NCBI GenBank assembly: GCA_044869805.1
Contig: JBIOXV010000005.1
Location: 64,034-128,033, forward strand
Source: Thermoanaerobaculia bacterium
Lineage (GTDB): Bacteria; Acidobacteriota; Thermoanaerobaculia; Multivoradales; SZUA-115
Direction of reading: 5' to 3'
Length of the DNA: 64,000 bases
A model generated the notes under the pieces. That model made no database searches, was not told the origin of the DNA, and saw only the letters and a program-made list of their open reading frames with translations. Below, one piece after another: positions 10,089-30,593 of this stretch (the first letter of the stretch is position 1; every line of letters starts with the position of its first letter). The translations under genes were made by a program, and so were the position numbers.

Positions 10089-10250
10089 TCCTCGGGCTGC
10101 AAGGGACTGGCGACTCCATCCATCTTTTTCTAACAGGCCATGGACCTGGTCATATACCGGCAACTCTCCTGTCGGAAGGCTCTGATTGATGTCCGTCTAA
10201 GGGACTTGGATTGAGTCGAGCACTGGCCCGACGGACCAAAGGAGAGCCGG

Positions 10251-10931: not shown

Positions 10932-11009
10932 GGCCGGGCGCCATCTGCTGCCGTCGGCCCTTGCCTCCTTACGAGCGGGGCGATACTCTCTCCGCCGTAA
11001 GGAGGAATC

Positions 11010-11306: not shown

Positions 11307-11704
11307 TGATCGCCGTCGACACCAACGTCCTGCTGCGCCTTCTGATCCATGACGACGCCCGCCAGAAGGAGACTGTCGATCGCTTGCTGCAAGCTGCGCG
11401 GGAGCAGGGTGAGGTTTGCTTGGTGAGCAACCCGGTCCTCTGCGAGATCGAATGGGTCTTGACGAGGACCTATCGCGCAAAGCGCAGGGACTGCGCGGTC
11501 GCGTTCCAAGGGTTGCTCGAAGATCCCTTCTTCGTCTTCGAGGATCGCAGTGCCGTCGGCCGGGCGCTGGTCCTCTTTCAAGAAGGCAGAGCCAGCTTTG
11601 CGGACTACCTGATCGGCGAGATCGGACAGACACAGGAAGCGCGGACGACTCTTACGTTCGATCGCGACCTGGCTGGTCATCCGGGGTTCACGGTACTCGG
11701 TTGA
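11306..11704 (+). CDS. vapC: PIN-domain ribonuclease toxin VapC
   Basis: MIAVDTNVLLRLL... with the acidic PIN residues (D5, E, D near the C-terminus). The ATG at 11306 overlaps the vapB stop (TGATG). Confidence 0.8.
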   Translation: MIAVDTNVLLRLLIHDDARQKETVDRLLQAAREQGEVCLVSNPVLCEIEWVLTRTYRAKRRDCAVAFQGLLEDPFFVFEDRSAVGRALVLFQEGRASFADYLIGEIGQTQEARTTLTFDRDLAGHPGFTVLG

Positions 11705-11757
11705 CCGCTGCGCCATCTCTCAACCCTCACCCAAACTCCGATGCCCAGGAGACTTCC

Positions 11758-13604: not shown

Positions 13605-14339
13605 CTAGAGAGCCAACACTGCCGCCGACAGATCCACCACCCACGCTCCCGGCACGCGGGCCTCGACCACCAGGCGCGCGAGGTTGAGCCATCGCGGGCA
13701 GCGGTCGAGGATGGCGCTGTCGGCGGTAGCGACGACCGCCGGCGAGGCGGCGAGCTCGCGGTCCGGGCTCACCGCCAGCTCCACCTGCCACGGCCAGCCG
13801 CGGGCCTCGGCCGTGGCCTCGATCAGCGCCTTGAGGCGCCCGCTGTTCGAGATCGGCCGGTCGAGCAGCCAGGAGACGCCGGCGGGGCCCAGCCCGGCGA
13901 GATAGCCGCCGATCTCCTCGAGGCCGGGCAGGGTCTGGCTCACGCGGCGGTAGTGGCCCGAGATCGAGGCCATGTCGCGCATCGTGCCGTCGCGGCCCAG
14001 CAGCACCACGCCGCCGCCGAGCGCCACCTCCACGGTGACCAGCAGGTTGTAGCCGTCGACGGCGAGCTCCTGGCCGGCCAGGGCCTCGGGTCCGACCCGC
14101 CGCTGCTCGCGCCGGGCACGATCCTCGTCGCTCGCCGCCACGCGTTGCAGGGCGATGCGCTGGCGGGCCCGCAGCGCGTGGCGGTCACCGACCAGGGTGA
14201 GGGCCGCCGCCTTCGAGTAACCGCGCGATAGCAGCCAGCACAGCTCCTCGGCCGCCGCGCGCAAGGTGGGGAGATGCTGCGGCGCAAACTCCTCGGCGTC
14301 CTTGGGGTGGGCGCCGCGGTTGGTGCGGCGGTCGGGCAT
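13605..14339 (-). CDS. Hypothetical protein, DUF434/DUF5616-like
   Basis: 244-aa ORF with coherent codon usage. Weak recollection of DUF434-type motifs (DGYNLLVTVEVALGGG...LGRDGTMRDMA). The overlapping + strand ORFs are artefacts. Confidence 0.45.
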   Translation of the reverse strand: MPDRRTNRGAHPKDAEEFAPQHLPTLRAAAEELCWLLSRGYSKAAALTLVGDRHALRARQRIALQRVAASDEDRARREQRRVGPEALAGQELAVDGYNLLVTVEVALGGGVVLLGRDGTMRDMASISGHYRRVSQTLPGLEEIGGYLAGLGPAGVSWLLDRPISNSGRLKALIEATAEARGWPWQVELAVSPDRELAASPAVVATADSAILDRCPRWLNLARLVVEARVPGAWVVDLSAAVLAL

Positions 14340-14470
14340 GGAGCCATCATCCCATGCCGCTCAGGGCGGCCTCGCCCAACTCTCCCCGTTGCAACCCGCA
14401 CCCGGTTTCGCCGTATCCTCAAGGCCATGGGAGCCGCCTCGCGCGGCGTCCGCCGCCCCTTGCCCCGACC

Positions 14471-16672
14471 ATGAGCCTGCGCAGCAAGCTGATCCTCGCC
14501 TTCCTCCTGCTCTCGGTGGTGCCGCTCTCGGCGCTGGTCCTCTACTCCTACCTCAACTCGACCGCGACTCTGCGGCGCGTCGCGTTCGAGGAGTCGACCG
14601 AGCTCGCCTCGGAGATGAAGGAGCGGATGAGCCTGGTAAAGGACGATCTCGCCCGCCGTGTGCGCCGCCTCGGGCGGCTGCCGCTGGGAGAGCTCGCGGC
14701 CCACGATGGCGGCGGGGACGGGCGCCGCGCCCTGCTCGCCGAGGTCGAGGCCGCCTTCGGCGAGGTCGCCCCCTTCGTCGAAGCCCTGGAGTTCGTGCCT
14801 CGGGAGGCGCCCGAAGCGCCGTCTTCGCTCGCGATGCCCCCGCCCCCGGCCGCCGCTCCCGTGGCCCCGGTCCCCCCCGCTCCCCGCGCGCCGCGGCCGC
14901 CCCGCACCCCGCGCGTGGCCGGGGCAGCGGCGGTGACGCCGCTGCCCGAGGTCGGGGTGGAGCACGCCGAGAGGGCGATGAGCCACCTGGTGATCCGGCT
15001 CGACTCGCCGGCCCGGACCGCGGGCGACGCGGAGCGCCGAGAGCTCGCGGCCGAGAAGGCGGAGAGGGTGCTGCTCCAGGACCTGATCGCCGCCCAGACG
15101 GACGCGGCCCTGAAGCTCGCCGGCAGGAGCCTCGAAGCATCGCTTCTCGCCGCGGCCCCGGTGGCGGGTGCCGCTCTCTCGCATTCCCTCGAGGCCGGCT
15201 TGCCGACCGTCGAGCCCGCGACGGGCCTCGATCCCGAGGCGCGCCGCGCCCTGGCCCAGAGGGCGGCCGAGTCGAAGAAGCTCCTCGGCCGCGACTTCAA
15301 CTGCCCGGTCGAGGCGAGCGGCAAGGCGATCGGCGCGCTCGAAGCGCGGGTGAGCGCCAAGCAGGTCCTGCACGCGGTGCTCGCCCTGTCGCGCCGCGAC
15401 CGCGGCGAGATCCCCTTCGCCCTCGACCCCGACGGTGCCGTCTACACCGCCAATCCCGCCGACCGTGCGACCCTCGAGCAGCTCCCGGTGCGCGGCGACC
15501 AGATGGGCAAGGTCAAGGCCGACGGCTGGGTGATGGTCAAGGTCAAAGACGCCGACTCCGGCCTGGTCTACGGCATCGCCAGCCCGCTGCAGCAGTCCCT
15601 GGTCGAGCTGCGCCGCACCGCGGCCCGCAACTTCGTGCTCGGCCTCGGCCTGATCGGCTTCGCGCTGGTGGGGATCGCGCCGCTGTCGCGCCGCATCACC
15701 CGCGAGCTCTCCGAGCTCGCCGAGGGCGCCCGCGCGCTCGCCTCCGGCAACCTCTCGGCGCGGGTGCCGGTGCGCACCAAGGACGAGGTGGGCCAGCTCG
15801 CCGCCAGCTTCAACCGCATGGCCGCCGACCTGGCCGAGCACCAGCGGCAGCTCATCGAGCAGCAGCGGCTGGCCCAGGAGCGGGAGATCGAGCGCCTGCT
15901 GCTCGCCACCGAGAACGAACGCAAGACCTGCGAGCTGGAAGAGGCGCGGCGCTTCCAGCTCTCGCTGCTGCCCAAGAAGCTGCCCGAGCACCCGCGCCTC
16001 GACCTCGCCGTCTTCATGCGCACGGCGACCGAGGTGGGCGGCGACTACTACGACTTCCTGCTCGGCGAGGGCGGCGCGCTGACCCTCGCGGTGGGCGACG
16101 CCACCGGCCACGGCGCCACTGCCGGCACGCTGGTGACGGTGGCGAAGAGCCTGTTCGTGGCCCGCGCCGCGGACTCGCCGCTCGCCGCCTTCCTGGGCGA
16201 GGCCAACCGGGCGATCAAGAGCATGGAGCTGGGCCGCATGGCCATGGCCCTGGCGCTCGCCAGGGTGGACGGCGGCCGCCTCACCCTGGCCGCCGCCGGC
16301 ATGCCGCCGGCGTTGGTCTACCGGGCGGCGACCGGCGCGGTCGACGAGCTCGCCGTGGAGGGCCTGCCCCTGGGCTCGCTCGCCGAGTGCACCTACCGCG
16401 AGGTGGAGACGGCGCTCGCGCCCGGCGACGCGGTGCTGCTGATGAGCGACGGCTTCCCCGAGCTCAGGGACGGGGCCGGCGAGCCGCTGGGGTACGCCCG
16501 CGCGCAGGCGATTTTCGCCGCCTCTGCGACGAAAGCCCCGGCCGACCTCATCGCCGACCTCGAGCACGCCGTCAGCAAGCGCAAGTCCGGCGCCCCGCCC
16601 GACGACGACGTGACCTTCGTGGCGATCAAAGTGCGCGGCTTCGGTATGCCATCGCCCCGGCAGCCGGCATGA
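14471..16672 (+). CDS. HAMP-domain PP2C-type serine phosphatase (SpoIIE/RsbU family)
   Basis: Start at MSLRSKLILAFLLLSVVPLSALVLYSY (TM). Second TM, then HAMP (LAEGARALASGNLSARVPVRTKDEVGQLAASFNRMAADL), a coiled coil, and a PP2C/SpoIIE core (EVGGDYYDF...GDATGHG...). Confidence 0.8.
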   Translation: MSLRSKLILAFLLLSVVPLSALVLYSYLNSTATLRRVAFEESTELASEMKERMSLVKDDLARRVRRLGRLPLGELAAHDGGGDGRRALLAEVEAAFGEVAPFVEALEFVPREAPEAPSSLAMPPPPAAAPVAPVPPAPRAPRPPRTPRVAGAAAVTPLPEVGVEHAERAMSHLVIRLDSPARTAGDAERRELAAEKAERVLLQDLIAAQTDAALKLAGRSLEASLLAAAPVAGAALSHSLEAGLPTVEPATGLDPEARRALAQRAAESKKLLGRDFNCPVEASGKAIGALEARVSAKQVLHAVLALSRRDRGEIPFALDPDGAVYTANPADRATLEQLPVRGDQMGKVKADGWVMVKVKDADSGLVYGIASPLQQSLVELRRTAARNFVLGLGLIGFALVGIAPLSRRITRELSELAEGARALASGNLSARVPVRTKDEVGQLAASFNRMAADLAEHQRQLIEQQRLAQEREIERLLLATENERKTCELEEARRFQLSLLPKKLPEHPRLDLAVFMRTATEVGGDYYDFLLGEGGALTLAVGDATGHGATAGTLVTVAKSLFVARAADSPLAAFLGEANRAIKSMELGRMAMALALARVDGGRLTLAAAGMPPALVYRAATGAVDELAVEGLPLGSLAECTYREVETALAPGDAVLLMSDGFPELRDGAGEPLGYARAQAIFAASATKAPADLIADLEHAVSKRKSGAPPDDDVTFVAIKVRGFGMPSPRQPA

Positions 16673-19252: not shown

Positions 19253-19990
19253 TCACCGTACGCTGGCGAGCGGCAAAGCCGGTGCTGGAGGCGCGGTGAC
19301 CACGATGGTGTCCGCCATGTGGTCGTGGATGCAGCGGCGGTCGTCGCGGAAGAGGAAGAGCGAGTCCACCAGCCAGAAGACCGGTCCCACCAGCGGGATC
19401 ACCTGCAGGCCGGTGGGGAGAAGGAAGCGCAGGCCGACCAGCCGCCCCAGCGAGGCGGTCTCGCCGCTGGCGCGCACGATGCGGATGCCGACCGCTCGCT
19501 TGCCGAGCGTCTGGCCGCTCCTGGCGAGCAGCCGGAGCTGGACGAGGGCCAACGCCACCAGCCCCAGGAGCCCGAGCAGGATGAAGATCGCGCCTCGGCT
19601 GCTCACCTCTCGCTCACCGGCGCTCGTCACCGGCAGGAGCACGGCGAGGTAGGGGATCAGGAAGGCAAAGTTGTCGAGCAGCTTGGCCCCCAGCCGGGTC
19701 CCGCGCTCGGCCAGCTCGAGCTCACCGACCGACACCGGCGCCTGCCCCACGGCGGCGGTCGGAGGAGCATAAGGATTGAAGCGCGCACCGGAGCCTCCGA
19801 GGTCGGCCCGGATTTCCTCCGCGCCACGATAGGGGCTCTCCGGCGGTCTGCGAAAACGGGAGAACACGATGCCGCAGGCCAGGCACTCGTCGCTGTCCGG
19901 CGGCCGCGTGTAACCGCACTTTGGACACTTGTCGCCGGGCGCGGTCTCCACCTCGAGGTCCGGGGAAATGCCGCTCGAGGGTTGGATCAT
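19253..19990 (-). CDS. RDD-family membrane protein with N-terminal zinc ribbon
   Basis: CPKCGY...CLACG zinc ribbon, then an RDD-type core (GQTLGKRAVGIRIV) with TM helices. Confidence 0.7.
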   Translation of the reverse strand: MIQPSSGISPDLEVETAPGDKCPKCGYTRPPDSDECLACGIVFSRFRRPPESPYRGAEEIRADLGGSGARFNPYAPPTAAVGQAPVSVGELELAERGTRLGAKLLDNFAFLIPYLAVLLPVTSAGEREVSSRGAIFILLGLLGLVALALVQLRLLARSGQTLGKRAVGIRIVRASGETASLGRLVGLRFLLPTGLQVIPLVGPVFWLVDSLFLFRDDRRCIHDHMADTIVVTAPPAPALPLASVR

Positions 19991-20025: not shown

Positions 20026-21372
20026 CTAGAGTAGGCCGCAACGTTTAATCTCCAGGTAGCGGTTGACCATGGCGACCGGCAGCTTCTCGGGCTCGACGTC
20101 CAGGGTGAGGACGCCCAGGCCGCGCACCTGCTCGTGGGCGCGCTCGCGGGCCGCCAGGTACTGCCGGCAGGCGGCCACGAAGAGGGCGTCCTCGAGCTTT
20201 CCGATCGGCCCCGCCGCCGCGGCCGCGAGCGCCGACTCGCGCAGGCTGGCGAGCAGCACCAGGTGGCGCTGCGAGAGGAGCTTCAGGGCCGGCAGCAGCT
20301 CGCTCGCGTCCTCGTCGCGCAGGTTGGAGACCACCACTACCAGGGCGCGGCGGCGCTCGAGCGTCGCCAGCCGCACCGCCGCGGCCGCGTAGTCGGGCGG
20401 CTCCGCCGAGGTCTGGAGGTCGTAGACCGCGGCCAGCAGCCGCGCGATGGCCGCCGGCCCTTTGGCGGGCGGCACCCACCGCGGCTCGCCGCTGAAGGTG
20501 GCGAGGCCCACGGCGTCGCCGTAGCGCGTGGCGGCGTAGGCCAGCAGCAGCACGGCGTTGAGCGCGTGGTCGAAGTGGGCGAGGTCACCCTCGCGGGCGC
20601 GCATCCGGCGCCCGCAGTCGACCATGAACACCACCCGCTGGTCGGTCTCGTCGTGGAAGTCGCGGGTGATCGGCTTGCCGCGCCGCGAGGTCGCCTTCCA
20701 GTCGATCTGGCGCAGCGAGTCGCCCTGCCGGAAGTCGCGCAGCTCGCGGAACTCGCGGCCCTCGCCGCGGCGCTCGCGGTGGCGGATGCCCATCCGCGCC
20801 AGCCGGTCGTCGACCGCCAGGTGGGCGTAGCCGAGCAGGGGCCGGAAGTTGGGCAGCACCCGCACCACCTGCGCGGCCCCCGCCCACCTGCGGCGCCGCC
20901 ACAGGCCGAGGGGCGAGGCGAGCAGCAGCTCGGTGGCGCCGAAGGCGGCGTCGCCGCGCTCGAGGGGCCGCACCTGGTACTCGAGCTCGACCCATCCGCG
21001 GGCCGGCACCGCCGTCGCCCGCGGCAAGCCCTCGAGCTCGGAGGCGGGCGGGTAGTGATCGAAGACCGCGAGCGCCACCGGCCGCCGGCCGGGGTTGTCG
21101 ATCTTGAGCCGCACCCGGGTGGGCACCCCGAGGGGCACCGCCCCCGCCACCTGCCGCTCGACCCGGGGCGTGCGCGTGCGGCCCACCCACAGCGCGTCGG
21201 CGACGGCGAGCGCGGCCAGGGCGCCGCCGGCCGCCAGCCAGGCCGGCGCGAAGGGCGCGGGAGCGAACGCCGCCGCCAGCCCGGCGGCGAGCCAGACAGC
21301 GGCGCCCGCCAGGGCGCGCGGCGCAGGCGTCAGGGCCGGCCGGCCGGCCACGGCCGGCGCCACCGTGCTCAC
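20026..21372 (-). CDS. DUF58 domain protein (VWA-like, MoxR partner)
   Basis: FRELRDFRQGDSLRQIDWKATSRRGKPITRDF...VVFMVDCGRRM is the DUF58 signature. The GTG start overlaps the MoxR stop (GTGA). The Arg-rich N-terminal extension in the track is rejected. Confidence 0.8.
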   Translation of the reverse strand: MSTVAPAVAGRPALTPAPRALAGAAVWLAAGLAAAFAPAPFAPAWLAAGGALAALAVADALWVGRTRTPRVERQVAGAVPLGVPTRVRLKIDNPGRRPVALAVFDHYPPASELEGLPRATAVPARGWVELEYQVRPLERGDAAFGATELLLASPLGLWRRRRWAGAAQVVRVLPNFRPLLGYAHLAVDDRLARMGIRHRERRGEGREFRELRDFRQGDSLRQIDWKATSRRGKPITRDFHDETDQRVVFMVDCGRRMRAREGDLAHFDHALNAVLLLAYAATRYGDAVGLATFSGEPRWVPPAKGPAAIARLLAAVYDLQTSAEPPDYAAAAVRLATLERRRALVVVVSNLRDEDASELLPALKLLSQRHLVLLASLRESALAAAAAGPIGKLEDALFVAACRQYLAARERAHEQVRGLGVLTLDVEPEKLPVAMVNRYLEIKRCGLL

Positions 21373-22364
21373 TGGCGGGGCGCCTCCACCGCGGCGAGCA
21401 CGCCCTCGATCGCCCGCGCCGCGGTGTAGCCCTCGATCTCCATCTCCGGCGACACGATCACACGGTGCACGAGGGCCGCCGCCGCCAGCTCCTTGACGTC
21501 GTCGGGAACCACGAAGTCGCGGCCCGCGAGCACCGCCCGGGCACGCGCCGCGCGCACCAGGGCGATCGCCCCGCGCGGGCCGGCGCCGACCCGCAGGCCC
21601 GGCCACGAGCGGGTGGCGCGGGCGATCTTCACCGCGTAGTCGACGATGCGCTCGTCCACCTGCACCCGCGCCACGAGCTGCTGGATCGCCACCACCTCGG
21701 CCGGCGTGGTCACGGTGTCGACCGCCGAGACGTCGAGGCGGTCGCCCACCCGGCCGGCCGTCACCTGCCGTACCAGGGCCACCTCGTCGCTCTCGCTCGG
21801 GTAGTCGACAGCGATCTTGAGCAGGAAGCGGTCCACCTGCGCCTCGGGCAGCGGGTAGGTACCCTCCTGCTCGATCGGGTTCTGGGTGGCGAGGGTCATG
21901 AACGGCGGCGGCAGCAGGAAAGAGCGGCCCTCGATCGACACCTGCTGCTCCTGCATCACCTCGAGCAGGGCCGCCTGGGTCTTGGCCGGCGCGCGGTTGA
22001 TCTCGTCGGCCAGCAGCAGGTGGGTGAACACCGGCCCGCGGCGGATCTTGAACTCGCCGCTCTTCATGTCGAAGAGGGTGTGGCCGGTGATATCGGCCGG
22101 CATCAGGTCGGGGGTGAACTGGATGCGCGCGAACTGCCCGCCGAAGGTCTTGGCCAGGGCCAGCACCAGGAGCGTCTTGCCCAGGCCGGGCACGCCCTCG
22201 ACCAGCACGTGGCCGGCGGCGAGGAAGGCCACCAGCACCTGCTCCAGGGCCGCCTCCTGCGCCACTACCGCCTTCGCCACCTCCTGGCGCATGCGGGTGG
22301 CGACCGCCGCCGCCTGCTCGAAGCCGAGCTCCGTGGCCGCGCCGGCCGTCGCTTCGCTGCTCAT
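21369..22364 (-). CDS. MoxR-family AAA+ ATPase
   Basis: Walker A GVPGLGKT, Walker B LLADEINRA, and the MoxR C-terminal region. Start at MSSEATAG overlaps the upstream stop (ATGA). The 720-aa track ORF is a read-through artefact. Confidence 0.85.
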   Translation of the reverse strand: MSSEATAGAATELGFEQAAAVATRMRQEVAKAVVAQEAALEQVLVAFLAAGHVLVEGVPGLGKTLLVLALAKTFGGQFARIQFTPDLMPADITGHTLFDMKSGEFKIRRGPVFTHLLLADEINRAPAKTQAALLEVMQEQQVSIEGRSFLLPPPFMTLATQNPIEQEGTYPLPEAQVDRFLLKIAVDYPSESDEVALVRQVTAGRVGDRLDVSAVDTVTTPAEVVAIQQLVARVQVDERIVDYAVKIARATRSWPGLRVGAGPRGAIALVRAARARAVLAGRDFVVPDDVKELAAAALVHRVIVSPEMEIEGYTAARAIEGVLAAVEAPRQ

Positions 22365-23524
22365 AAGGGCCTCCGTAGGCGTTCCAGGGTCTCGATCATG
22401 CGCGTGAGGTCGTGCGGCCGCCCGGGCACGGCGCCGCCGAGCGCCCAGGCCACGGTCTCGCCCGGCAGCTCGGCGAGGGCGGCCAGCTTCTCCACCTTGG
22501 CACGGCTCGGCATCCTGGCGAAGCCCGGGAAGCGCACGCCGGCGCGCTTCAAGAGCGCCTGGCGCGAGCTCTCGACCAGCGAGCCGGCCTCGCCCTGCCG
22601 CCACAGGAACTCGGCCGAGGCGCGGATGTGCTCGATCAGGCTGCGGCGGGCGCGCGACGGGACGGGCAGCAGGGGCCCGAAGCGCGCTGCCCGCCGCCAC
22701 AGCCAGAAGGCGAGCAGCACGGCGCCGGCCGCCACCGCCCGCCAGCCGTGGCGCCAGAGCAGGGCGCCGAGCGTGGGGTACTGGAGCCACCGCACCAGGC
22801 GCGCGGACACCGGCTTGCCTGCCACGGTGACCGCCGACCAGAGGAAGGCGGCGTGCTCGTATTCGCCGAGCCTGGCGTTCGAAGGCAGGCCCGGGTCGGA
22901 GAGGATCGCCACCCAGCCGCTGCCGTGCGGCTTGCGGATCAGCAGGTGACCGTCCTCCCCGCCGGGGCCGGACACGAAGTAGTCGGGGTCGGCGGCGTCC
23001 GGCGCCGGTTCCTCGTCGTACTCGGGGACCAGCAGCCGGTCCGCAGCCGCGATCGCGACCTCGAAGCTCTCGCCGGGCCTCGCCTCCAGCCGCTGCGGGC
23101 GGCCGAGGAGCTCCCAGGGCTGGTCTTCGATCGGCTCCTCGACCTGCACGACACCGAGCAGGCTCAGGAGGACGGGATCGGGCGAGGCCAGGAGATAGCC
23201 GCCCTCTTCCGCCCAGGCCAGCACCTCGACGGCCCGCTCGTGCGACAGCATCGGCCGCTCCGCCATCAGCACCAGCAGCCCGCCGGGCGGCGGCAGGGGA
23301 TCGACCTCCTCGGCCGACTCGGATGGCACTCCCATCGCGGTCAGGAAGCGCTGCGCGGCCAGCAAAGGGTCGCGGCGCGCCGCCTGCGACCAGCCCGTGC
23401 GGACGGTGCGCTCCACCGGCTCGAAGAGGAGGAAGAAGGCCGCCACCCCGAGGGCGGCCAGCAGGCCGAGTGCCGGCATCGAGGAAAGGCGCAGGCGCGC
23501 AGCGCGTCGAGGTTTCACTGCCAT
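22361..23524 (-). CDS. DUF4350 domain protein
   Basis: N-terminal TM. Its position between the DUF4129 protein and MoxR matches the conserved cluster. Confidence 0.65.
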   Translation of the reverse strand: MAVKPRRAARLRLSSMPALGLLAALGVAAFFLLFEPVERTVRTGWSQAARRDPLLAAQRFLTAMGVPSESAEEVDPLPPPGGLLVLMAERPMLSHERAVEVLAWAEEGGYLLASPDPVLLSLLGVVQVEEPIEDQPWELLGRPQRLEARPGESFEVAIAAADRLLVPEYDEEPAPDAADPDYFVSGPGGEDGHLLIRKPHGSGWVAILSDPGLPSNARLGEYEHAAFLWSAVTVAGKPVSARLVRWLQYPTLGALLWRHGWRAVAAGAVLLAFWLWRRAARFGPLLPVPSRARRSLIEHIRASAEFLWRQGEAGSLVESSRQALLKRAGVRFPGFARMPSRAKVEKLAALAELPGETVAWALGGAVPGRPHDLTRMIETLERLRRPL

Positions 23525-23531
23525 CGTTCAC

Positions 23532-25037
23532 TCATCCCGCGGCACCGGGCCCGAAGTGACGGCCGTAGCCGGCGCAGAGCGCGAGCATCTCCTCGCCGGC
23601 GAGCGGCCGGTGGGCGTAGGCCACGCCTTGCCAGGCGCGGGTCAGGCGAGCCAGCTCCTCCGACGCCCCGCGCGAGAGCTGGCGCGCCAGCCGGCGCAGG
23701 CACTCGCCCTCGGTCCAGCTCGGCTCGATCTCCAGCCGGCGGCGCACGGCGAGCGTCGCGAGCGCGCCCCGGTAGAGGAGCGACAGCGCCTCGGCCACCC
23801 GCCCGGCCTCGTAGCGCTGCCAGGCCTCGGCCGCGACGTCGGCCGGCAGCGGCTCGGGAGCCGGCGCGGCGCCGGAGGTGATCGGCGAGGGCACGGGAAG
23901 CGAGCCCTGCGCCGGGCCGCCGTCCATCAGGCCACTCCTGCGCAGCGCGTAGATGGCGAGCGCCGCGACCCCGGCCCCGGCCAGCAGCCACAGCGCGCTC
24001 TCGGCGAGCGGCCCCAGCCAATCGAGCTCGAGGCCCGGGCCGTTCGAGCGCTGCTCGTCGCTCTCGAACCGCCACTTCCAGCGCCGCACCGTGCGCTCGC
24101 GGCCGAAGTCGGGTGCTTCGAGCACGCGGTCGATCGCCTCTTTGGGCGTAGGGTCCGCCCCGGCGGCCGCGGCCGGCAAGCCGATGGCGAGGAGCAGCAG
24201 CGCGGCGGCGATTCCTTGCCGCGTCTGGGCTTGCCGCGTCTGGGCCTGCCGTGCCCTGCCCCGCCGCCCGCCGCCGGCCTCGTCCCGCAGCCGCCGCGCG
24301 AGGCGGCGGAAGGCGATCTCCACGTCCCAGCCCTCGAGGTCGGTGCGCCGGTTGAGGTAGAGCGTGAAGCCCGCCGCCACGTAGAACGGCTCGATCACGG
24401 TGAGGGAGGCAAACCCCAGGAGGCCCCAGAGCAGGTGGTAGGCGAGCGGCGCCTCACCGCCGTCGAGGTAGGTCCTGAAGAGCAGGCCCCAGTCCGGAGA
24501 CAGGCCCTCCGGCACCATGATCATGACGAAGGCGAAGAAGGCGAAGAACAGCAGCACCTGGGCCACGATGCAGGCGAAGGTCAGCAGCATCGCCTCCAGG
24601 TGCCCGGAGCGGTTGAGCACGCTCTGGCGCTGCCAGCGGGCCCGGCCGCCGAGCTCCTCGAGCAGGCGCACCGGCAGGTGGAACGAGCGGGCCGGGTCGA
24701 GGCGCTCGAGGCCCAGGTAGGCGGGCGCAACCTTGAGCCACGACCGCAGCGCGGCGCCGAGCGTGCCGCGCAGCGTGGGCTTCTCTCCGAACAGCGCCCG
24801 GCTGACCACGTGCAGGGGGATCACGTCGAGCAGCGGCCGCAGCCACCAGAGGATGGCAAAGGCCACCAGCGGCGCGCCGCGGGCGGCGAGGAGCACGCCG
24901 AGCCACAGCGGAAAGCCGACGGCGAGCCACGGTCCCCAGATCCGCCGCCCCCACGCCTGCACCAGCGTCAGGCCGAGGTCGATGGCCTCCCAGGGGCGCC
25001 GCGGGCGGATGGCGGCCGCCACCCGCTCAAGGTCCAT
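23532..25037 (-). CDS. Polytopic membrane protein with C-terminal DUF4129 domain
   Basis: Several TM helices. C-terminal DUF4129-like motif (TEGECLRRLARQ...WQGVAYAHRP). Contains an in-frame tandem 15-nt repeat (QTRQA x2). Confidence 0.65.
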   Translation of the reverse strand: MDLERVAAAIRPRRPWEAIDLGLTLVQAWGRRIWGPWLAVGFPLWLGVLLAARGAPLVAFAILWWLRPLLDVIPLHVVSRALFGEKPTLRGTLGAALRSWLKVAPAYLGLERLDPARSFHLPVRLLEELGGRARWQRQSVLNRSGHLEAMLLTFACIVAQVLLFFAFFAFVMIMVPEGLSPDWGLLFRTYLDGGEAPLAYHLLWGLLGFASLTVIEPFYVAAGFTLYLNRRTDLEGWDVEIAFRRLARRLRDEAGGGRRGRARQAQTRQAQTRQGIAAALLLLAIGLPAAAAGADPTPKEAIDRVLEAPDFGRERTVRRWKWRFESDEQRSNGPGLELDWLGPLAESALWLLAGAGVAALAIYALRRSGLMDGGPAQGSLPVPSPITSGAAPAPEPLPADVAAEAWQRYEAGRVAEALSLLYRGALATLAVRRRLEIEPSWTEGECLRRLARQLSRGASEELARLTRAWQGVAYAHRPLAGEEMLALCAGYGRHFGPGAAG

Positions 25038-26023
25038 GCCGTCTCCCGCCCAGGAGGAGATAGGCGGCCACCAGCGCCCACAGGGCCGCGCCCACGCCGT
25101 AGCGCACGCCGGGAGCCAGGGTCACGGTCGACGACCAGAAGGCCTCGATGAAGGCCGCGATCAGCAGCATGATGGTGAGTCCGTAGAGCAGCGGCACGGC
25201 GCCGTGCGCCGCCTCGAGGATCGAACGGCCGCGCGTCAGGCGCCCCGGCGCCAGCAGGGCCAGGCCGAGGCGCAGGCCGGCGGCGCCGGCGAGCACGATC
25301 GCCGTCAGCTCGAAGGCACCGTGGGCGATCACGAACGGGTAGAAGGTCTCGCCCAGGCCAGCGTTGCCCAGGTGGCCGGCTACGGCGCCGATCACCAGGC
25401 CGTTGTAGACCAGGATGAAGACGGCGCCGATGCCCGCCACCAGACCGCTGGCGAAGGTACGGAAGGCGATCGAGATGTTGTTGTAGACGTAGCCGCCGAA
25501 CATGCCGAAGTCCGTCGCCGCCGGCCGCGACTCTTGCGACTCGGGGTCGTACATTTCCTCGAAGGCGGCGGTCTGCGCCGGGCCGAGAATCGAGTAGGCG
25601 AGGTCGGGCTCGAGCCGCACGCCGACCGCGGTGGCGAGCAAGGTGCCGAGGAAGAGCGCCGCGGCGACCCCCACCAGCTTCGCCTCCCGCCGCACGTGGC
25701 GTGGGAACTCGCGGGTGATGAAGCGCCCGATCCGCTCCCAGCTCGCGCCGCGGGCGCTCGCGTAGAGCTGCTGGTGGCCGCGCAGCGCCAGCCGGTTCAG
25801 GCGCTCCTCGAGGTCGCCGCCGTAGCGGCGGGCGCGCGCCAGCGCGAGCTGGTGGCAGAGCCGGCGATAGAGCTCGGGGAGCGCCGCCGCCGCGGCCTCG
25901 CCGGAAGCGGCACCACGGGTACCGCCGGCGGCGCGGGGCCTGCTGCCCTCCAGCCGGCTGAGCAGGGCCTCCAGCCGCTGCCAGCCGCCGGCGTGCCGCT
26001 CCACGAACTGGTCGCGGTTCAAC
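25027..26023 (-). CDS. Stage II sporulation protein M-like (DUF95) membrane protein
   Basis: SpoIIM/DUF95-type TM core (FITREFPRHVRREAKL...IAFRTFASGLVAGIGAVFILVYNGLVIG...). TTG start overlapping the RDD stop (TTGA) is proposed. The longer 583-aa track ORF has an Arg-rich artefactual N-terminus. Confidence 0.6.
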
Positions 26024-26726
26024 GCCGCCCCACCAGCCAGTTGGCGGCGCCGACGAGCCGCGCCAGGCCCTCGTCGCCGCGCGCGCCGGTCAACGGTGCG
26101 GCGAGGTCGGCGAGCTCCTGCGCCCGCTCTTCCGACCAGCGGGGAAGGCGGTGTGCGAAGTCGGTGATCGCCTTCTGCTCGGCGGCGGCCAACGGCACCG
26201 GCGGCGCCCAGGCGCGGGCACCGGCGAGCGGCGCCGGCGCAGCCTCGCGCTCCCGGTGCACCACAAGGGTGCCGGCGGCATGGTCGCCGAGCCGCTTGAA
26301 GTCGCGCGAGGCGAGCATCGAGAGCAGGCCGAGCCCATAGGCGACGGGCAGGAAGTCCGCGGCGAGCAGCAGATTGCGCAGCACAGAGGCGGTCCAGGAG
26401 ACGGGCGTACCGTCGTCGTGGAGGACCACCAGCCCCAGCGCGCGCTTGCCGGGCGTCGCGCCGGCCCACAGCACCTCGAAGAGCACGGGGTAGAACCACT
26501 CGCCCAGGAAGAGGAAGAGCAGAAAGAGTCCGCGGCCCACGTTGCCGAGCACCTCGAGAGCGGTGGCGAGCAGCGCGTAGCCCACCAGCCGGATCACCAG
26601 ATCGACGCCGCTGGCGAGCAGGCGCGCAGGGAACCCGGCGACCCGCAGACCCAGCTCGACGCCCTCCGGGGTCTCGATGGCGCGGTACGTATCCAACATA
26701 TTTTTCGAAGATCGTGACTCTAGCAC
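26019..26726 (-). CDS. RDD-family membrane protein
   Basis: RDD-type motif (LVIRLVGYALLATA...). First gene of the MoxR cluster. Confidence 0.7.
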   Translation of the reverse strand: MLESRSSKNMLDTYRAIETPEGVELGLRVAGFPARLLASGVDLVIRLVGYALLATALEVLGNVGRGLFLLFLFLGEWFYPVLFEVLWAGATPGKRALGLVVLHDDGTPVSWTASVLRNLLLAADFLPVAYGLGLLSMLASRDFKRLGDHAAGTLVVHREREAAPAPLAGARAWAPPVPLAAAEQKAITDFAHRLPRWSEERAQELADLAAPLTGARGDEGLARLVGAANWLVGRR

Positions 26727-26755
26727 CCCGCGATGTCAACGCCGCTCGCGGCTCT

Positions 26756-27604
26756 ATGATTGGCGCCTCCATGAGCACCGGCGGCGTGAGCGCGATCGAG
26801 GTCCGGGACCTCCGGAAGACCTACGCGGGAGGCGTCGAGGCTGTTCGCGGCATCTCCTTCTCCGTGCGCCAGGGCGAGGTATTCGGCCTGCTGGGACCGA
26901 ACGGTGCCGGCAAGTCGACGACCATCCGCATCCTCACCACCCTCGCGCACGCGACCGCCGGCAGCGCCCGGGTCGCCGGCTTCGACGTCGGGACCCAGGG
27001 CCGCGAGGTGCGGCGGGCGATCGGCTACGTGGCCCAGACCTCCGGGGTCGACGGCCTGGCGACCGGCCGCGAGAACCTGATGCTCCAGGGCCGTCTCTTC
27101 CACCTGCCGGCGGCCGAGATCGCCGCCCGCACGCGCAAGCTCCTGGCCCTCTTTCGACTCGACGACGCGGCCGACCGTTTAGCGCAGACCTACTCCGGCG
27201 GCATGAAGCGGCGCCTCGACGTGGCCATGGGCCTGATCCACCGGCCGCAGGTGCTGTTCCTGGACGAGCCCACCACCGGGCTCGACCCCGAGAGCGCCGG
27301 CTTCTCGAGCGCCTTGGCGCTCCTCACCCGCCGCCAGGAGATCATCATCGCCGCCTCCAACTTCACGCTCACGCCGATGATCTTCTCCTCGAGCATGCTG
27401 ATGTCCCAAGACCTGATGCCGGCCTGGCTCAAGGCCGTGGCGCGCATCAACCCCGTCGAGTGGGCGGTGATCGCGGCGCGCAACGGCTACGAAGGCCGCG
27501 CTCCCGGCCAGACCGCCTTCTTCCTGCTGCTCTCGGCCGGCTTCGCGCTAGCCTGCGGCGCCTTCGCCACGCGGGCCTTCGTGCGCTACCAGCGGTCGAT
27601 GTAG
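26756..27604 (+). pseudogene. ABC-transporter remnant: ATPase N-terminal half fused in frame to the C-terminal helices of an ABC-2 permease
   Basis: Walker A GPNGAGKST, signature YSGGMKRRLDVA, and Walker B VLFLDEPTTGLDPESAG are present. The D-loop, H-loop and C-terminal domain are missing. The sequence then continues directly into a permease C-terminus (PMIFSSSMLMSQDLMPAWLKAVARINPVEWAVIAARN...). Confidence 0.55.
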
Positions 27605-27683: not shown

Positions 27684-28517
27684 ATGACCGAGAAGCGCGC
27701 AGCCGGCGCCCCCGCGCCCCCACCGCGTCCGGTCGCGGCTCACGTCGAGGCCGCAATGGGGCGGCGGATCCAGGCCAAGGCCGCGGGGCAGGAGAAGACA
27801 CAGTCCGTGCAAGCCGCCGCGGCCCACGTGCAGCGCGCGATCTCGGCCGCCGCTCAGGCAAGGTTGCCGCACCAGGAAAGGGCGGCGCCGACGAGGACCC
27901 CTTCCCCCCACGTCCAGCGCGCGACCGCGCCGCCCCAGCCCAGGTTCGGCACCGCGGCGAGCGTTCAGCCAACGGCGGGCGGCTCCGCGCGATCGCTTGC
28001 GCCCCATCGCCAAGTGCAACCTCTGCCTGTCCGGTCAGCCGGAACCGTCCAGAGGGCACAAAAGCCTAGCTGGGACGAGTTCACCAACAAAGGAAGCAAA
28101 GCGCCGCCAAAGGTGGCGTCGGTGCCATCAAAACACAACCTAAACGCAAAAGACAAAGAGTATTCTCGACTGGCGCGGGATCTGCTGAAAGCTTATGCAG
28201 CAATGACTGACGCAATGATCGACGCGGCCCTAAAAGTGGAATTGAAAGAAGACGAAATGGGCAAGTACAATGCCCAGAGCACGGCCCTGGAAACGGATAG
28301 ACACAACATTGCGGAGGCTTTGGACGCCTATTTCGGCGGGGACGAGTGGGATGGGCAGAAATACGCCGTGCTGGAGGGCATCAACGTATACGGCGAGGAG
28401 TTCAATACCCTCAGGCTCCGCGCGGGCAGCCCTAACGACAGCGATTTCCTTGGCTGGAAGGCCCTCGTGAACCTGCTGAGATTGGTCAAGAGGGGGGAAG
28501 GAAAGTGGATTAGCTAG
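27684..28517 (+). CDS. Hypothetical protein with an abrupt internal GC shift
   Basis: GGAGG 5 nt upstream. The N-terminal 125 aa are an Ala/Pro/Gln-rich low-complexity region at about 72% GC. The C-terminal 150 aa (from about nt 28050) are a Lys/Asp-rich helical domain at about 50% GC. No family recognised. Confidence 0.55.
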   Translation: MTEKRAAGAPAPPPRPVAAHVEAAMGRRIQAKAAGQEKTQSVQAAAAHVQRAISAAAQARLPHQERAAPTRTPSPHVQRATAPPQPRFGTAASVQPTAGGSARSLAPHRQVQPLPVRSAGTVQRAQKPSWDEFTNKGSKAPPKVASVPSKHNLNAKDKEYSRLARDLLKAYAAMTDAMIDAALKVELKEDEMGKYNAQSTALETDRHNIAEALDAYFGGDEWDGQKYAVLEGINVYGEEFNTLRLRAGSPNDSDFLGWKALVNLLRLVKRGEGKWIS

Positions 28518-28591
28518 GGAGCGGATTGAGAGTCAGCGCCCCCACCTTTTCCCCGGCGCGCCCACAGGCTTCGTTCACGCTCTCGAGAAAC

Positions 28592-28609
28592 GGGGCTCTC
28601 GCGAGCCCC
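28592..28609. terminator. Stem-loop between convergent genes (GGGGCTC-tcgc-GAGCCCC)
   Basis: 7-bp GC stem seen in the sequence. Weak U tract on the minus side only. Confidence 0.3.
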
Positions 28610-28635
28610 ACTTCGCATGGCGGAAAGGATCAAAC

Positions 28636-29250
28636 CTAGTACAGGTCCTGGATTCCCGCGCGGTCGTCGTTGGCGAGCGACGCGGGGCCGTTGTTGCAGG
28701 CGGAGACCGAGGGATACATGGTGGCGCCGGAGACGCCGGAGTGGCCGAGGCCCAGCAGGTGGCCGACCTCGTGGGTGTGGATCGCCTCGGTGTAGAACTC
28801 GTTCGAGCAGCTCTCGCCCAGCGACGCCCAGGCGTGCTGCCGGTTGGTGACGATGTCCGCGTCGGTGATGCGGTAGGTGCCGTTCGGGCGCTGCGTGTAG
28901 AAGCCGGTGAAGGTGGCCGCCAGGCAGTTGTTGCGGCAGGCGCCGGTCGGGTCCTGGAAGTTGAGCATCGGGCGGCCGTCGCCCAGCGAGAAGCCGGAGA
29001 TCGAGCCGACGGTGGCCGACAGGCGGGTGCCGGTGCCGGCGCTGTTCCAGGCGAGGATGGCGTTGCGCGTGCGGGTGCGGCCAAGGTCGCCGTCGGTGAT
29101 CGAGGAGTTGCCGCGGCTGTCGACGACGACGTTGGGCGGGCTGTCCCAGGTGCGGCGCGGGGACAGCAGGACGTAGCCCAGCGCGCTGCCGGCCGCCAGC
29201 GTGGCGACCACCGCGAGGGCGAGAAGCGTGCGGATCTTCAGGTTGTTCAT
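28636..29250 (-). CDS. Secreted metzincin (matrixin/M10-like) zinc metalloprotease, minimal catalytic domain
   Basis: Signal peptide. HTHEVGHLLGLGHS is the HExxHxxGxxH motif. A downstream Met-turn (GATMYPS) is present. Confidence 0.8.
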   Translation of the reverse strand: MNNLKIRTLLALAVVATLAAGSALGYVLLSPRRTWDSPPNVVVDSRGNSSITDGDLGRTRTRNAILAWNSAGTGTRLSATVGSISGFSLGDGRPMLNFQDPTGACRNNCLAATFTGFYTQRPNGTYRITDADIVTNRQHAWASLGESCSNEFYTEAIHTHEVGHLLGLGHSGVSGATMYPSVSACNNGPASLANDDRAGIQDLY

Positions 29251-29271
29251 GGTCTTTTGCCCCCTCGTGGA

Positions 29272-29826
29272 TTAGTACTCGAGGCGGCCGGCGCGCCGGG
29301 CCTCAGCAAGGATCGAGTCCTTGAGGTCAGTGAGCAGCACGGTCTTCGCCGCCGGGGCCGGGCGGCCGTCCGGGAACAGCAGGCGGCCGCCGTCGTCCAC
29401 CGTGGGCACGGCCCACTCGAAGCCGGAACGGTCCATCACCAGCCGGAAGTGCCCCTGCTGGTAGCCGGCCACCTTGGCCACGCCGTCCTGCTCGCGCTCC
29501 AGGAACAACAGCACACGCTCGTTGGCGCCGAACCTGGGGAAGCCGTGCGCCTCCACGGTATAGCCGTCCACCGTGCCCCCCCAGGTCTTGACCCGGACCT
29601 GTGAGCCGGGATCGCCCAGCACCGCCTCCTCCACCTCGATCACCGCCTCCGAGACGATGACGCGCCCCTCCGCATCCCAGAACGAGTGCACCTCGAGCAC
29701 CTTGCCCTGCACGATGGCCGCCGCGTCCCGAACCAGCTCCGCGCGCGACATCGCGAGGAAGGTCGAGGCCGTGGCGGGCAAAGCCGCCAGCAGAGCCACG
29801 AGGCAGACTACCGACCAACGCTTCAT
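29272..29826 (-). CDS. Secreted hypothetical protein (184 aa) immediately upstream of the metzincin
   Basis: Start at MKRWSVVCLVALLAALPATAS (signal peptide), inside a longer artefactual track ORF. 21-nt gap to the protease gene. Confidence 0.6.
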   Translation of the reverse strand: MKRWSVVCLVALLAALPATASTFLAMSRAELVRDAAAIVQGKVLEVHSFWDAEGRVIVSEAVIEVEEAVLGDPGSQVRVKTWGGTVDGYTVEAHGFPRFGANERVLLFLEREQDGVAKVAGYQQGHFRLVMDRSGFEWAVPTVDDGGRLLFPDGRPAPAAKTVLLTDLKDSILAEARRAGRLEY

Positions 29827-29990
29827 GAACGACCTCCTTACGCCTCGATCCGAGGCGACACCAGGCCGCTGACCACCAGCGGCCCGATCAGATCCAGGAT
29901 GTGGGGGCTCGAAAGATGTCGGCCTACGAGGGGAGGTGTCCGGCCGGGGTGGAGTGTGACACCCCGGCCGGAGCAGGGGCGGCGAAATCG

Positions 29991-30593
29991 CTACGGCGTG
30001 CGGTCGATGCGCTGGCGCACCGGGTCCGGAATCACGAAGCAGCCGGCGGCGTCGCTCGAGAAGACGACGAAGGAGTCGGCCAGGAACAGGTTGACGCCGT
30101 GCTGGTAGGTGCACTCGACGTAGACGTCGAGGCCCGGGTTGAACGGCGTGCCGCCGTAGTTGTACACCCGCCCCGGAACGCTGTAGACGATCACCCCGCC
30201 CGGAGACGTGGTCACCCCGGTGTTGGGGGCGGCGTCCCATTCCTTGCCCTTGAGCTGCCAGTGATCTCCAGGCACGCAGCAGTCGGAGATGTGGAAGTCG
30301 ACGAAGGTTCCGGCGCCGCAGATGATGCGGAAGCCCTGCACTTCGGCGGGCCCGGCCGAGCGGCAGATCCACTGCTCTCTCCACTGCACCGCCGGGTCGA
30401 GAATCGGGAAGGGGATGCCGGGGAATGGGTTCGGCCCGATAGCGTCCTTGACCGCCGTCGAGAGTGCCGCGTCCACCGACGTGGCATCCTTCGCGTAGTT
30501 GGGCGAGTTCAGAGGGTCCGGCGGCGCGGCGAAGGCCGGGGTTGCGAGAGCCAGGACGAGCAGGCAGAGCAGAGCGAGAGTGCGCTTCGACAT
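29991..30593 (-). CDS. Secreted Cys-rich hypothetical protein (200 aa)
   Basis: Signal peptide MSKRTLALLCLLVLALATPAFA. Seven Cys in the mature part. No family recognised. Confidence 0.6.
   Translation of the reverse strand: MSKRTLALLCLLVLALATPAFAAPPDPLNSPNYAKDATSVDAALSTAVKDAIGPNPFPGIPFPILDPAVQWREQWICRSAGPAEVQGFRIICGAGTFVDFHISDCCVPGDHWQLKGKEWDAAPNTGVTTSPGGVIVYSVPGRVYNYGGTPFNPGLDVYVECTYQHGVNLFLADSFVVFSSDAAGCFVIPDPVRQRIDRTP

Follow-up and report, generated by a model that had tools for sequence, protein, structure and literature searches.

MoxR ATPases and their VWA partners have been described as factors that mature specific complexes (PMC12067865, PMC3893208). In Mycobacterium tuberculosis, the Rv3689-Rv3695 cluster (moxR2 region) encodes DUF4350, MoxR, DUF58, SpoIIM-like and RDD proteins together with a membrane protein, a family make-up taken from the orthologue table of Mycobacterium chelonae, in which the homologous set was found to be jointly down-regulated (PMC8191103). 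Zhang and Aravind (2012, PMC3495828) predicted that operons of the MoxR-vWA(DUF58)-YebA/TgpA type encode a degradation system proximal to the membrane. In archaea, the neighborhood of arCOG01314 (DUF4350), MoxR and vWA genes was predicted to encode a secretion or membrane-remodeling complex, and vWA and COG0714 genes were noted together with those of SpoIIM homologs in several bacteria; a six-gene bacterial set including RDD and DUF4129 genes is not described in this study (Makarova et al., 2015, PMC5898192).

The operon presented here occupies positions 20026..26726 of the window, i.e., the whole stretch of 64,000 nt that was analyzed, and consists of six co-directional ORFs on the minus strand (g1 to g6). 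The domain calls of the initial annotation were borne out for all six, as each product passes the Pfam gathering score for its family, in gene order RDD, SpoIIM/DUF95, multi-TM with DUF4129, DUF4350, MoxR AAA_3 and DUF58. The same families come together in the M. tuberculosis cluster, which is likewise functionally uncharacterized. Going by its annotation, the mycobacterial SpoIIM and RDD genes presumably depart from this collinear order, and the equivalent of g3 appears to be split. As in TgpA-type operons, the MoxR and DUF58/vWA pair is coupled to a multi-TM protein. Unlike in these operons, however, there is no transglutaminase-like core but four different membrane proteins, and no TGL/transglutaminase match was obtained in any product (E<=0.01) or in 26 g3 homologs (E<=5). 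The succession of a MoxR gene, a DUF58 gene and genes for membrane-anchored partners is also seen in Bacteroides aerotolerance (Bat)/BatI-type operons, which are envelope-associated and poorly understood, as is the operon described here. In Bat operons, the partners comprise TPR proteins and the VWA-TM proteins BatA and BatB, and we know of no RDD, SpoIIM, DUF4129 or DUF4350 genes in them. Here, the genes downstream of the DUF58 gene encode an RDD protein and an EamA transporter, and no VWA-TM or TPR product was identified among those scanned. The archaeal arCOG01314 neighborhood likewise combines the gene of a membrane-anchored DUF4350 protein with those of a vWA protein and a MoxR ATPase (COG0714), but the partners there are Ig-like and S-layer-like proteins, unlike those found here (PMC5898192). 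To these descriptions, the present analysis adds the loss of the MIDAS motif in DUF58, the predicted domain folds of g3 and the linkage of NPYxxP-tailed proteins, including the downstream RDD gene.

Direct reading of the gene junctions revealed a tight arrangement. The initial annotation had stated that every junction overlaps by 1-4 nt, which holds for g1/g2 (TTGA), g4/g5 (ATGA) and g5/g6 (GTGA), each with an overlap of 4 nt. Instead, g2 and g3 overlap by 11 nt (ATGGACCTTGA), and g3 and g4 are separated by a 7-nt gap, or by 52 nt in the NCBI gene call, which places the g4 start further downstream. An ATGA at the g3 stop was rejected as a start of g4, as it is out of frame with this gene and opens an ORF of only 6 codons. 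A terminator scan detected no credible terminator inside the operon and no terminator-like site in the gap between g6 and the next gene, g7, which begins 35 nt past the g6 stop with a GGAGGA upstream. The genes of this interval form a single operon of six core cistrons, joined here by a seventh.

Of the 60 related loci whose flanking DNA is long enough, 55 exhibit the same gene order and strand, a conservation exceeding chance, and the modal junctions across loci, from g1 to g6, are -4, -11, -4, -4 and -4 nt. The carriers belong to at least five phyla (Acidobacteriota, Beta/Gammaproteobacteria, Verrucomicrobiota, Planctomycetota and Myxococcota), and the same operon is found in Pseudomonas lactucae and Catenovulum. 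The core is rigid and single-copy, with identities of 27-56% between phyla and an ordinary chromosomal setting; the flanking genes vary between lineages. This survey of order and strand supports a recurrent, co-directional and translationally coupled unit in bacteria. Its proposed recurrence in archaea was not supported, as none of the 80 loci fetched was archaeal; archaea carry a different set of DUF4350, MoxR and vWA genes, and their SpoIIM homologs are mostly stand-alone (PMC5898192). In one locus (L092), DUF4129 and DUF4350 are joined in a Rosetta-stone fusion, and in another (L093) and in a JGI contig g3 is split into two genes; fusion and splits argue that these parts act together. It had also been stated that no molecular function is established, in agreement with the literature searched, which offers only partial mentions of the neighborhood (PMC5898192, PMC8191103) and in which no functional study or experiment on any member of the operon family was found.

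This gene set is still best read along the lines of the earlier suggestion, as a MoxR/DUF58 chaperone that acts on a membrane complex. Tentatively, and at slightly less than an even chance, we consider the operon to encode a machine, driven by an AAA+ ATPase, for assembling or remodeling a dedicated inner-membrane complex. This complex would be formed by the four integral membrane proteins (the RDD protein g1, g2, g3 and g4), and g6 would be the adaptor which links them to the MoxR hexamer g5. By hydrolyzing ATP, MoxR may pull on the cytoplasmic portions of the complex or its clients, or rearrange them. The six core proteins carry no recognizable catalytic or substrate-binding signature, and a cellular role in envelope or membrane homeostasis or in transport is a guess.

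The gene for the ATPase g5 (21369..22364, minus strand) is preceded by a GGAGG 7 nt upstream of its start, and its product matches AAA_3 (PF07726; 1e-62) over the full profile (1-131 of 131) and AAA_lid_2 (1.5e-20). The Walker A motif GVPGLGKT (22173..22196, minus strand) and the Walker B motif LLLADEINR (21993..22019, minus strand) are intact. Lys of the former and Asp of the latter are present in all 70 orthologs, and the Walker B Glu, the sensor-1 Asn (TQNP) and the Arg finger (DRF) in 69/70 each. The nearest solved structure is 2r44_A (E 5.5e-75), and midasin AAA modules match at 4e-19. By these matches and motifs, g5 is a MoxR-proper (MRP-type) AAA+ ATPase, which would act as a hexameric chaperone. 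The gene of its putative VWA/DUF58 partner g6 adjoins it, as is the case in the related loci, and the modal -4 junction of the pair is found in 36 of 66 related loci.

The DUF58 protein g6 (20026..21372, minus strand) matches its family (PF01882) at 1.8e-30 and 106 bits, against a cut-off of 23.4, and its VWA_2 score of 23.6 bits lies under the cut-off of 27. A crude hydropathy scan predicts an N-terminal TM hairpin, which would tether the protein to the membrane, followed by a DUF58/VWA-like region that would face the cytoplasm. At the site equivalent to the MIDAS motif DxSxS, g6 reads D252-C-G-R-R-M257 (20602..20619, minus strand), with both serines replaced. Across 62 orthologs, these residues are conserved as D (62), C (57), G (60), R (48), R (61) and M (60), which leaves Gly in 60/62 and Arg in 61/62 cases at the two serine positions. 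In other systems, cofactors or metals are inserted by MoxR-class ATPases that have a VWA partner. Metal insertion had been proposed for this operon as an alternative, and its target could be a membrane enzyme, as with NorQ/NorD, CoxD/CoxE or chelatases; g5 does display a weak NCBIfam similarity to chelatase ATPase subunits, far under the cut-offs. This proposal is weakened by the conserved D-C-G-R-R-M in place of DxSxS, by the variable flanking genes and by a survey in which no metalloenzyme or redox protein was conserved in or beside the operon, and it is very improbable. Since DUF58 lacks the MIDAS serines, the adaptor contact is probably metal-independent, and a cofactor-insertion device is unlikely.

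For the membrane complex favored here, g4 (22361..23524, minus strand; alternative start at ATG 23479; public gene call of 372 aa) would provide the DUF4350 domain (PF14258, 6.3e-14), for which a GldG-like flavodoxin fold was described (PMC5898192). Its predicted layout comprises an N-terminal signal-anchor, the DUF4350 domain, a second TM helix (residues ~252-275) and a tail of ~110 aa; DUF4350 would thus be placed in the periplasm between two TM helices, with the tail in the cytoplasm. The SpoIIM/DUF95-like protein g2 (25027..26022, minus strand, TTG start; PF01944, 8.5e-35) is predicted to consist of a cytoplasmic three-helix bundle (residues ~1-112, DUF8413 in newer Pfam releases) and a SpoIIM domain with 5-6 TM helices. 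It shares this Pfam family with Bacillus subtilis SpoIIM, the scaffold of the SpoIID/SpoIIM/SpoIIP engulfment machine, and both are polytopic membrane proteins thought to organize partners. Unlike SpoIIM, g2 has the additional N-terminal bundle, no SpoIID or SpoIIP domains were detected in the operon products or in the ten flanking products scanned, and the carriers identified come from phyla in which endospore formation is not known. The core RDD protein g1 (26019..26726 as longest ORF, minus strand) has 3 predicted TM helices and a C-terminal soluble tail of ~90 aa according to a crude hydropathy scan. Its longest ORF opens at GTG 26726, but the start is more likely ATG 26699, giving 226 aa, because conservation begins there (residue 10 of the longest ORF), because the public gene call (226 aa) starts there and because the upstream start would overlap the 5' end of a divergent ABC gene.

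A second RDD gene with a zinc-ribbon, mentioned in the initial annotation as a side detail, is real and belongs to an accessory class specifically linked to the operon. This gene, g7 (19253..19990, minus strand), encodes a protein that combines a zinc-ribbon and an NPY tail with an RDD membrane domain. The zinc-ribbon match is weak (18.8 bits, under the cut-off of 25), and the RDD matches (PF06271) are above the gathering score for both g7 (9.2e-20) and g1 (2.3e-15), which are distant relatives only (BLASTP E 0.002). Its NPYAPP motif (residues 72-77; 19760..19777, minus strand) lies in a predicted cytoplasmic tail before the RDD domain, and no other [NDS]PYxxP match occurs in any of the six reading frames of the window. 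The motif occurs in 102 of 120 g7 homologs, and all eight homologs sampled adjoin the operon. More generally, 31/76 loci (41%; Fisher p 2e-22) have genes beside the operon for membrane proteins with an NPYxxP tail at the N-terminus. These genes come from several unrelated families, NPY-tail RDD genes range from 1 to 4 copies among loci, and the Pseudomonas copy of the operon has no adjacent NPY-tail gene. Likely variable subunits or clients of the machine are the small membrane proteins, here g7, whose N-terminal NPYxxP tail is predicted to face the cytoplasm.

NPY tails on unrelated proteins linked to the operon would also fit a tag-like motif. They could serve as degrons in a membrane-proximal quality control or degradation system, in which DUF58 recruits, MoxR unfolds and a membrane protein cleaves or disposes of the substrate. 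DUF4129 is also found at the C-terminus of TgpA-like transglutaminase-fold proteins. Such a system would be analogous to that proposed by Zhang and Aravind for the MoxR-vWA-YebA/TgpA operon type, which has the MoxR and DUF58 pair in common (PMC3495828). However, a peptidase or transglutaminase domain was found in none of the seven proteins, the models of g2 and g3 match no protease fold, and the invariant residues include no conserved Cys-His-Asp or HExxH-type signature, which renders degradation unlikely.

In the assembly or remodeling machine considered above, g3 (23532..25037, minus strand, ATG start, 501 aa; DUF4129, PF13559, 2e-09) would contribute three parts, namely a 4-TM domain of CysZ-like type, a hairpin of TM helices and the DUF4129 bundle on the cytoplasmic side. 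A crude hydropathy scan predicts, in this order, the 4-TM domain, a cytoplasmic linker, the hairpin with an outside loop of ~50 aa and the cytoplasmic DUF4129 domain, which is matched in all 26 aligned homologs. The family comprises about 2,195 cluster representatives (E<=1e-30), with ~500 aa in nearly all of the 150 listed. The N-terminal membrane domain (residues ~11-255; 24273..25007, minus strand) carries the near-invariant motif EPFYVAAGFxLYLNRRTxLEGWDVE, and its fold in the AF2 model (pLDDT 79) shows no more than a suggestive resemblance to CysZ. A CysZ-like domain could, with the RDD and SpoIIM-like proteins, form the ion or solute pathway of a regulated transporter or channel, with the periplasmic GldG-like DUF4350 as accessory or substrate-facing part and MoxR/DUF58 as gating or assembly factor. 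The Foldseek match to CysZ is, however, statistically unsupported (E 3.0, probability 0.15), no link to CysZ/EI24 was found at the sequence level, and the operon encodes no nucleotide-binding transporter subunit. To our knowledge, there is no precedent for AAA+ MoxR proteins as transport energizers, and a transporter seems rather unlikely. Transporter and membrane-complex machine overlap in part.

The C-terminal DUF4129 domain of g3 (residues ~401-495; 23553..23837, minus strand) is modeled as a four-helix bundle with a HEPN-like fold, and its invariant residues include L421, Y422, R423, T442, E443, W469, Y474 and R477. As MoxR-vWA conflict systems have been described (Kaur et al., as cited in later papers), this domain might be considered the effector of such a defense system, with the multiplying NPY-tail RDD paralogs (1 to 4 copies) as variable sensors; g5 also matches the Pfam family bpMoxR (4.1e-10). 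This match is far weaker than that to AAA_3, and in the homolog alignment DUF4129 lacks the HEPN RNase motif Rx4-6H, as the His is not strictly conserved and the spacing does not fit. PADLOC returned no specific match, only generic P-loop-level matches (E>=1e-4), and no beta-propeller, kinase/FHA or toxin modules and no sensor or effector domains were found. Together with the rigid, single-copy core in ordinary contexts, diverged to 27-56% identity between phyla, this makes a defense role highly doubtful.

The 15-nt in-frame tandem duplication previously noted in the DUF4129 gene was recovered by TRF as 2.5 copies with 95% matches (24215..24251, minus strand). It encodes RQAQT-RQAQT-RQ within the variable cytoplasmic linker and is gapped in the 25 other aligned homologs, including one at 63% identity (BLASTP; 69% in the alignment). 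The repeat is lineage-specific and probably neutral, and the identical g3 protein is present in three independent assemblies.

Six successive ORFs occupy the minus strand of the window at 20026..26726, and Pfam recovered above gathering scores all six domain names that the initial annotation had assigned to them. These genes are g1 (26019..26726; RDD, E = 2.3e-15), g2 (25027..26022; SpoIIM, E = 8.5e-35), g3 (23532..25037; DUF4129, E = 2e-09), g4 (22361..23524; DUF4350, E = 6.3e-14), g5 (21369..22364; AAA_3, E = 1e-62, and AAA_lid_2, E = 1.5e-20) and g6 (20026..21372; DUF58, E = 1.8e-30). The second RDD gene reported downstream, g7 (19253..19990, minus strand), was confirmed as well (RDD, E = 9.2e-20), with a weak zinc-ribbon match. 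The G+C content of the window is ~72%, and GC3 is 0.89-0.95 in the four operon ORFs kept by a codon-position G+C filter, which left out g2 and g5, as their longest ORFs overlap kept ones. The locus is a MoxR-DUF58 operon of a known kind, largely as first described.

All junctions were read directly. The earlier claim of 1-4 nt overlaps throughout is true of three of the five junctions, namely g1/g2 (TTGA, a 4-nt overlap), g4/g5 (ATGA) and g5/g6 (GTGA). It fails for g2/g3, which overlap by 11 nt (ATGGACCTTGA), and for g3/g4, which are separated by a 7-nt gap, the ATGA at the g3 stop not being in the g4 frame. Despite these two non-conforming junctions the operon is tightly packed. A terminator and promoter scan found no convincing internal terminator, as its four matches all lie within coding sequence and have weak T-tails. 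A gap of 35 nt separates g6 from g7, whose ATG is preceded by GGAGGA. For g1, the ATG at 26699 is the likely start rather than the GTG at 26726, from which the gene would run into the 5' end of a divergent ABC gene.

The window matches contigs of the MAG assembly GCA_044868515.1; the closest g3 relative has 63% identity, and the best relatives with a taxonomic label are Thermoanaerobaculia. With each species represented by one genome, a scan turned up at least 561 stretches encoding a g3 relative, 80 of which were analysed as a locus sample. Of the 60 loci whose flanking DNA was long enough, 55 keep all six genes in identical order and orientation, so that the unit is indeed recurrent in bacteria. 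These loci belong to Acidobacteriota (Thermoanaerobaculia, Holophagae), Beta- and Gammaproteobacteria, Verrucomicrobiota, Planctomycetota and Myxococcota; the further statement that the unit also occurs in archaea found no support, as none of the loci recovered was archaeal. The junction architecture of the operon is itself conserved across loci, with a modal spacing of -4 for g1/g2 (46/69 loci), g3/g4 (29/70), g4/g5 (32/72) and g5/g6 (36/66), and of -11 for g2/g3 (54/76). The unusual 11-nt g2/g3 overlap (25027..25037 in the window) spans phyla and is tied to a conserved M-[DQK]-L-E start of g3. With a g3-family profile, 2,195 representatives of 50%-identity clusters were matched at E<=1e-30, and nearly all of the 150 matches listed are ~500 aa long. 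The six-gene version of the operon has thousands of members, carried by thousands of genomes, including one in the tractable genus Pseudomonas: Pseudomonas lactucae has the same operon, with 48, 52, 30, 27, 56 and 47% identity to g1-g6 of the window. It is also present on a 647-kb replicon of Catenovulum adriaticum, where the RefSeq gene names agree with those of the initial annotation. On the actinobacterial Curtobacterium flaccumfaciens plasmid pCff1 (related locus L086, 132463-147135), a copy of the cluster exists in fragments, comprising an RDD gene, short “hypothetical” pieces matching the g3 N-terminal domain and a 141-aa “AAA family ATPase” piece; this copy looks decayed or mis-assembled.

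Few prokaryotic gene clusters without an assigned function are as widespread as MoxR-DUF58 operons. The literature yielded no functional study, in line with the view of the initial annotation that no molecular function is established, and no account of the six-gene unit itself. SpoIIM homologs have been described beside vWA and COG0714 genes in several bacteria, and the DUF4350 domain has been related to GldG (Makarova et al., PMC5898192). The same work describes an archaeal neighborhood of DUF4350, MoxR and vWA genes, whose partners, however, differ from those of the window operon (PMC5898192). Homologous genes of the Rv3689-Rv3695 type are jointly down-regulated in a transcriptome table of M. 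chelonae (PMC8191103), and, according to a 2025 review, it is unknown what DUF58 does beside MoxR (PMC12067865).

The catalytic motifs of the g5 MoxR ATPase are intact and conserved across orthologs, and among solved structures the Cytophaga MoxR 2r44 is the nearest to it. The g6 protein has a predicted N-terminal TM hairpin (from hydropathy) and a VWA-like domain lacking the MIDAS metal site DxSxS, with D-C-G-R-R-M at the motif position. Of 62 orthologs, 60 have Gly and 61 have Arg at the two serine positions of this site. The loss of the motif disfavors the metal-insertion module suggested earlier, which we now regard as highly improbable; chaperone or remodelling models are therefore to be tested over metal insertion. 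For g4 and g6, phmmer detected no relative of solved structure among PDB sequences. Degradation close to the membrane, after the proposal made for MoxR-vWA-TgpA (PMC3495828), is a reading that we consider distinctly unlikely; a peptidase domain is absent.

Among the membrane proteins, g3 is modular, as judged from hydropathy and an AF2 model (pLDDT 79). A conserved N-terminal domain with four TM helices and the motif EPFYVAAGFxLYLNRRTxLEGWDVE is followed by a variable cytoplasmic linker, a TM hairpin and the cytoplasmic four-helix bundle of DUF4129. The linker is the site of the 15-nt tandem repeat noted previously, which was found at 24215..24251 in 2.5 copies; it codes for RQAQT-RQAQT-RQ at a position gapped in every other aligned homolog. 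An assembly artefact was ruled out because the identical protein is found in three independent assemblies. In some loci, g3 exists as two separate genes, one for the N-terminal membrane domain and one for the TM-DUF4129 part (related locus L093, 10928-12470; a contig of JGI 3300048101). In another lineage (L092, 11120-13126), a single 668-aa protein combines the DUF4129 part with DUF4350; as a Rosetta-stone fusion, it hints at joint action of the two. In the g3 model, the N-terminal membrane domain may resemble CysZ. An alignment profile of g3 gave only chance-level matches to PDB sequences, and a scan for weak Pfam matches in 26 g3 homologs found no family over the N-terminal domain common to more than two members. 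That the operon encodes a regulated transporter appears unlikely.

The modelled DUF4129 bundle is HEPN-like, with the HEPN motif missing. This absence argues against a conflict system, as do the rigid core of the operon and the PADLOC result; such a role is very improbable. Neither PADLOC nor NCBIfam gave a specific match for any of the seven proteins. The g2 model (pLDDT 88.6) consists of an N-terminal three-helix bundle and a SpoIIM membrane domain, the latter with no analogue in the PDB. In g4, a periplasmic DUF4350 domain is predicted from hydropathy to lie between two TM helices, followed by a cytoplasmic tail. Comparison by hhalign of the g1 C-terminal tail, g2 N-terminal bundle, g3 DUF4129 domain, g4 C-terminal tail and g3 N-terminal domain revealed no relationship among them (all probabilities <3%).

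We tentatively favor a model in which MoxR could assemble or remodel a membrane complex via a DUF58 adaptor. The four membrane proteins would form one complex, DUF58, held at the cytoplasmic face by its membrane tether, would connect it to the MoxR hexamer, and the hexamer would remodel or assemble either this complex or partner proteins encoded next to the operon. The adaptor without MIDAS site, the modular g3 (split in some lineages and fused in another) and these partners, as candidate clients or subunits, are concrete handles that make the function of the operon more testable.

A survey of conserved neighbors identified these partners as small multi-TM proteins with [NDS]PYxxP in an N-terminal tail (NPY tail), for example FNPYAPPTAAV or MTDFNPYEAPSAVVAD; nothing on this tail was found in the literature. 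Of 76 loci, 31 have an NPY-tail ORF no more than 250 bp from the operon. The motif occurs in 31/196 ORFs within that distance, in 3/430 at 250-1500 bp and in 1/820 at 1.5-4.5 kb (Fisher p = 2e-22, for loci that are phylogenetically clustered). In six frames of the 64 kb, its single match falls in g7 (NPYAPP, 19760..19777). Among g7 homologs, 102 of 120 carry the motif, and all eight sampled, chosen on contig size alone, lie directly beside a six-gene operon. In view of these forward and reverse tests, we reject the idea that g7 is a chance neighbor. The Pseudomonas copy of the operon has no NPY-tail neighbor. Extra RDD genes adjoin the operon in some loci, and two motif-bearing paralogs are present in L089 and L093. 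In the Xanthomonadales-like L089, moxR and the DUF58 gene are separated by a DUF2628 gene (14255-14686) whose product has NPYEVAP in its N-terminal tail; the similarly placed insert of the Xanthomonadales-like L090 (14113-14550) has neither a Pfam match nor the motif.

The membrane domains behind the tail vary (RDD, DUF805, DUF7847/DUF2189-like, DUF5362-like and others). Counting RDD, DUF805, DUF2628, DUF5362-like and DUF7847/BPSS1780-like proteins, the tail is found on at least five unrelated membrane families, sometimes behind a zinc ribbon or GYF_2 domain. The name BPSS1780 may cover DUF7847-like NPY-tail neighbors of Betaproteobacteria; in Catenovulum adriaticum, a gene named “BPSS1780 family membrane protein” (L087, 14569-14699), truncated where the locus ends, is located ~2.4 kb downstream of the operon. 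A more speculative and fairly unlikely proposal is that the operon specifies an AAA+ machine for one class of small inner-membrane proteins, whose cytoplasmic N-terminal NPYxxP tail serves as a short linear recognition motif. The tail would be read by one of the cytoplasmic domains (the DUF4129 bundle, the three-helix bundle of g2, the tail of g4 or DUF58), and MoxR would insert, extract, assemble or turn over these proteins. If true, this would provide a first function for the operon and several large DUF families; the tail as a recognition signal would give functional context to several large families of small uncharacterised membrane proteins.

The flanks of the operon in the window are unrelated to it (EamA transporter, ABC chimera, matrixin-like peptidase, MarR regulator), and tRNA and Rfam scans of the window gave no matches. 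The divergent ORF at 26714..27604 (plus strand) is a chimera in which an ABC ATPase domain (residues 45-188) leads without a break into no more than the final third of an ABC-2 permease (profile positions 146-208 of 211). It has the look of a deletion product in which an ATPase gene was joined to its permease gene, and the genome's public gene call (L001) shows the same structure. The G+C content dips to 0.63 at 10001..12000 and to 0.66 at 28001..30000, compared with ~0.72 as background; the latter region spans the gene of the matrixin-like peptidase (28636..29250) and ORFs lacking a Pfam match. A gene for a DUF434/DUF5616 protein (13605..14339, minus strand) adjoins that of a HAMP-SpoIIE PP2C-type phosphatase (14354..16672, plus strand), a pair unrelated to the operon that adds another “sporulation-named” gene in a host not expected to sporulate.
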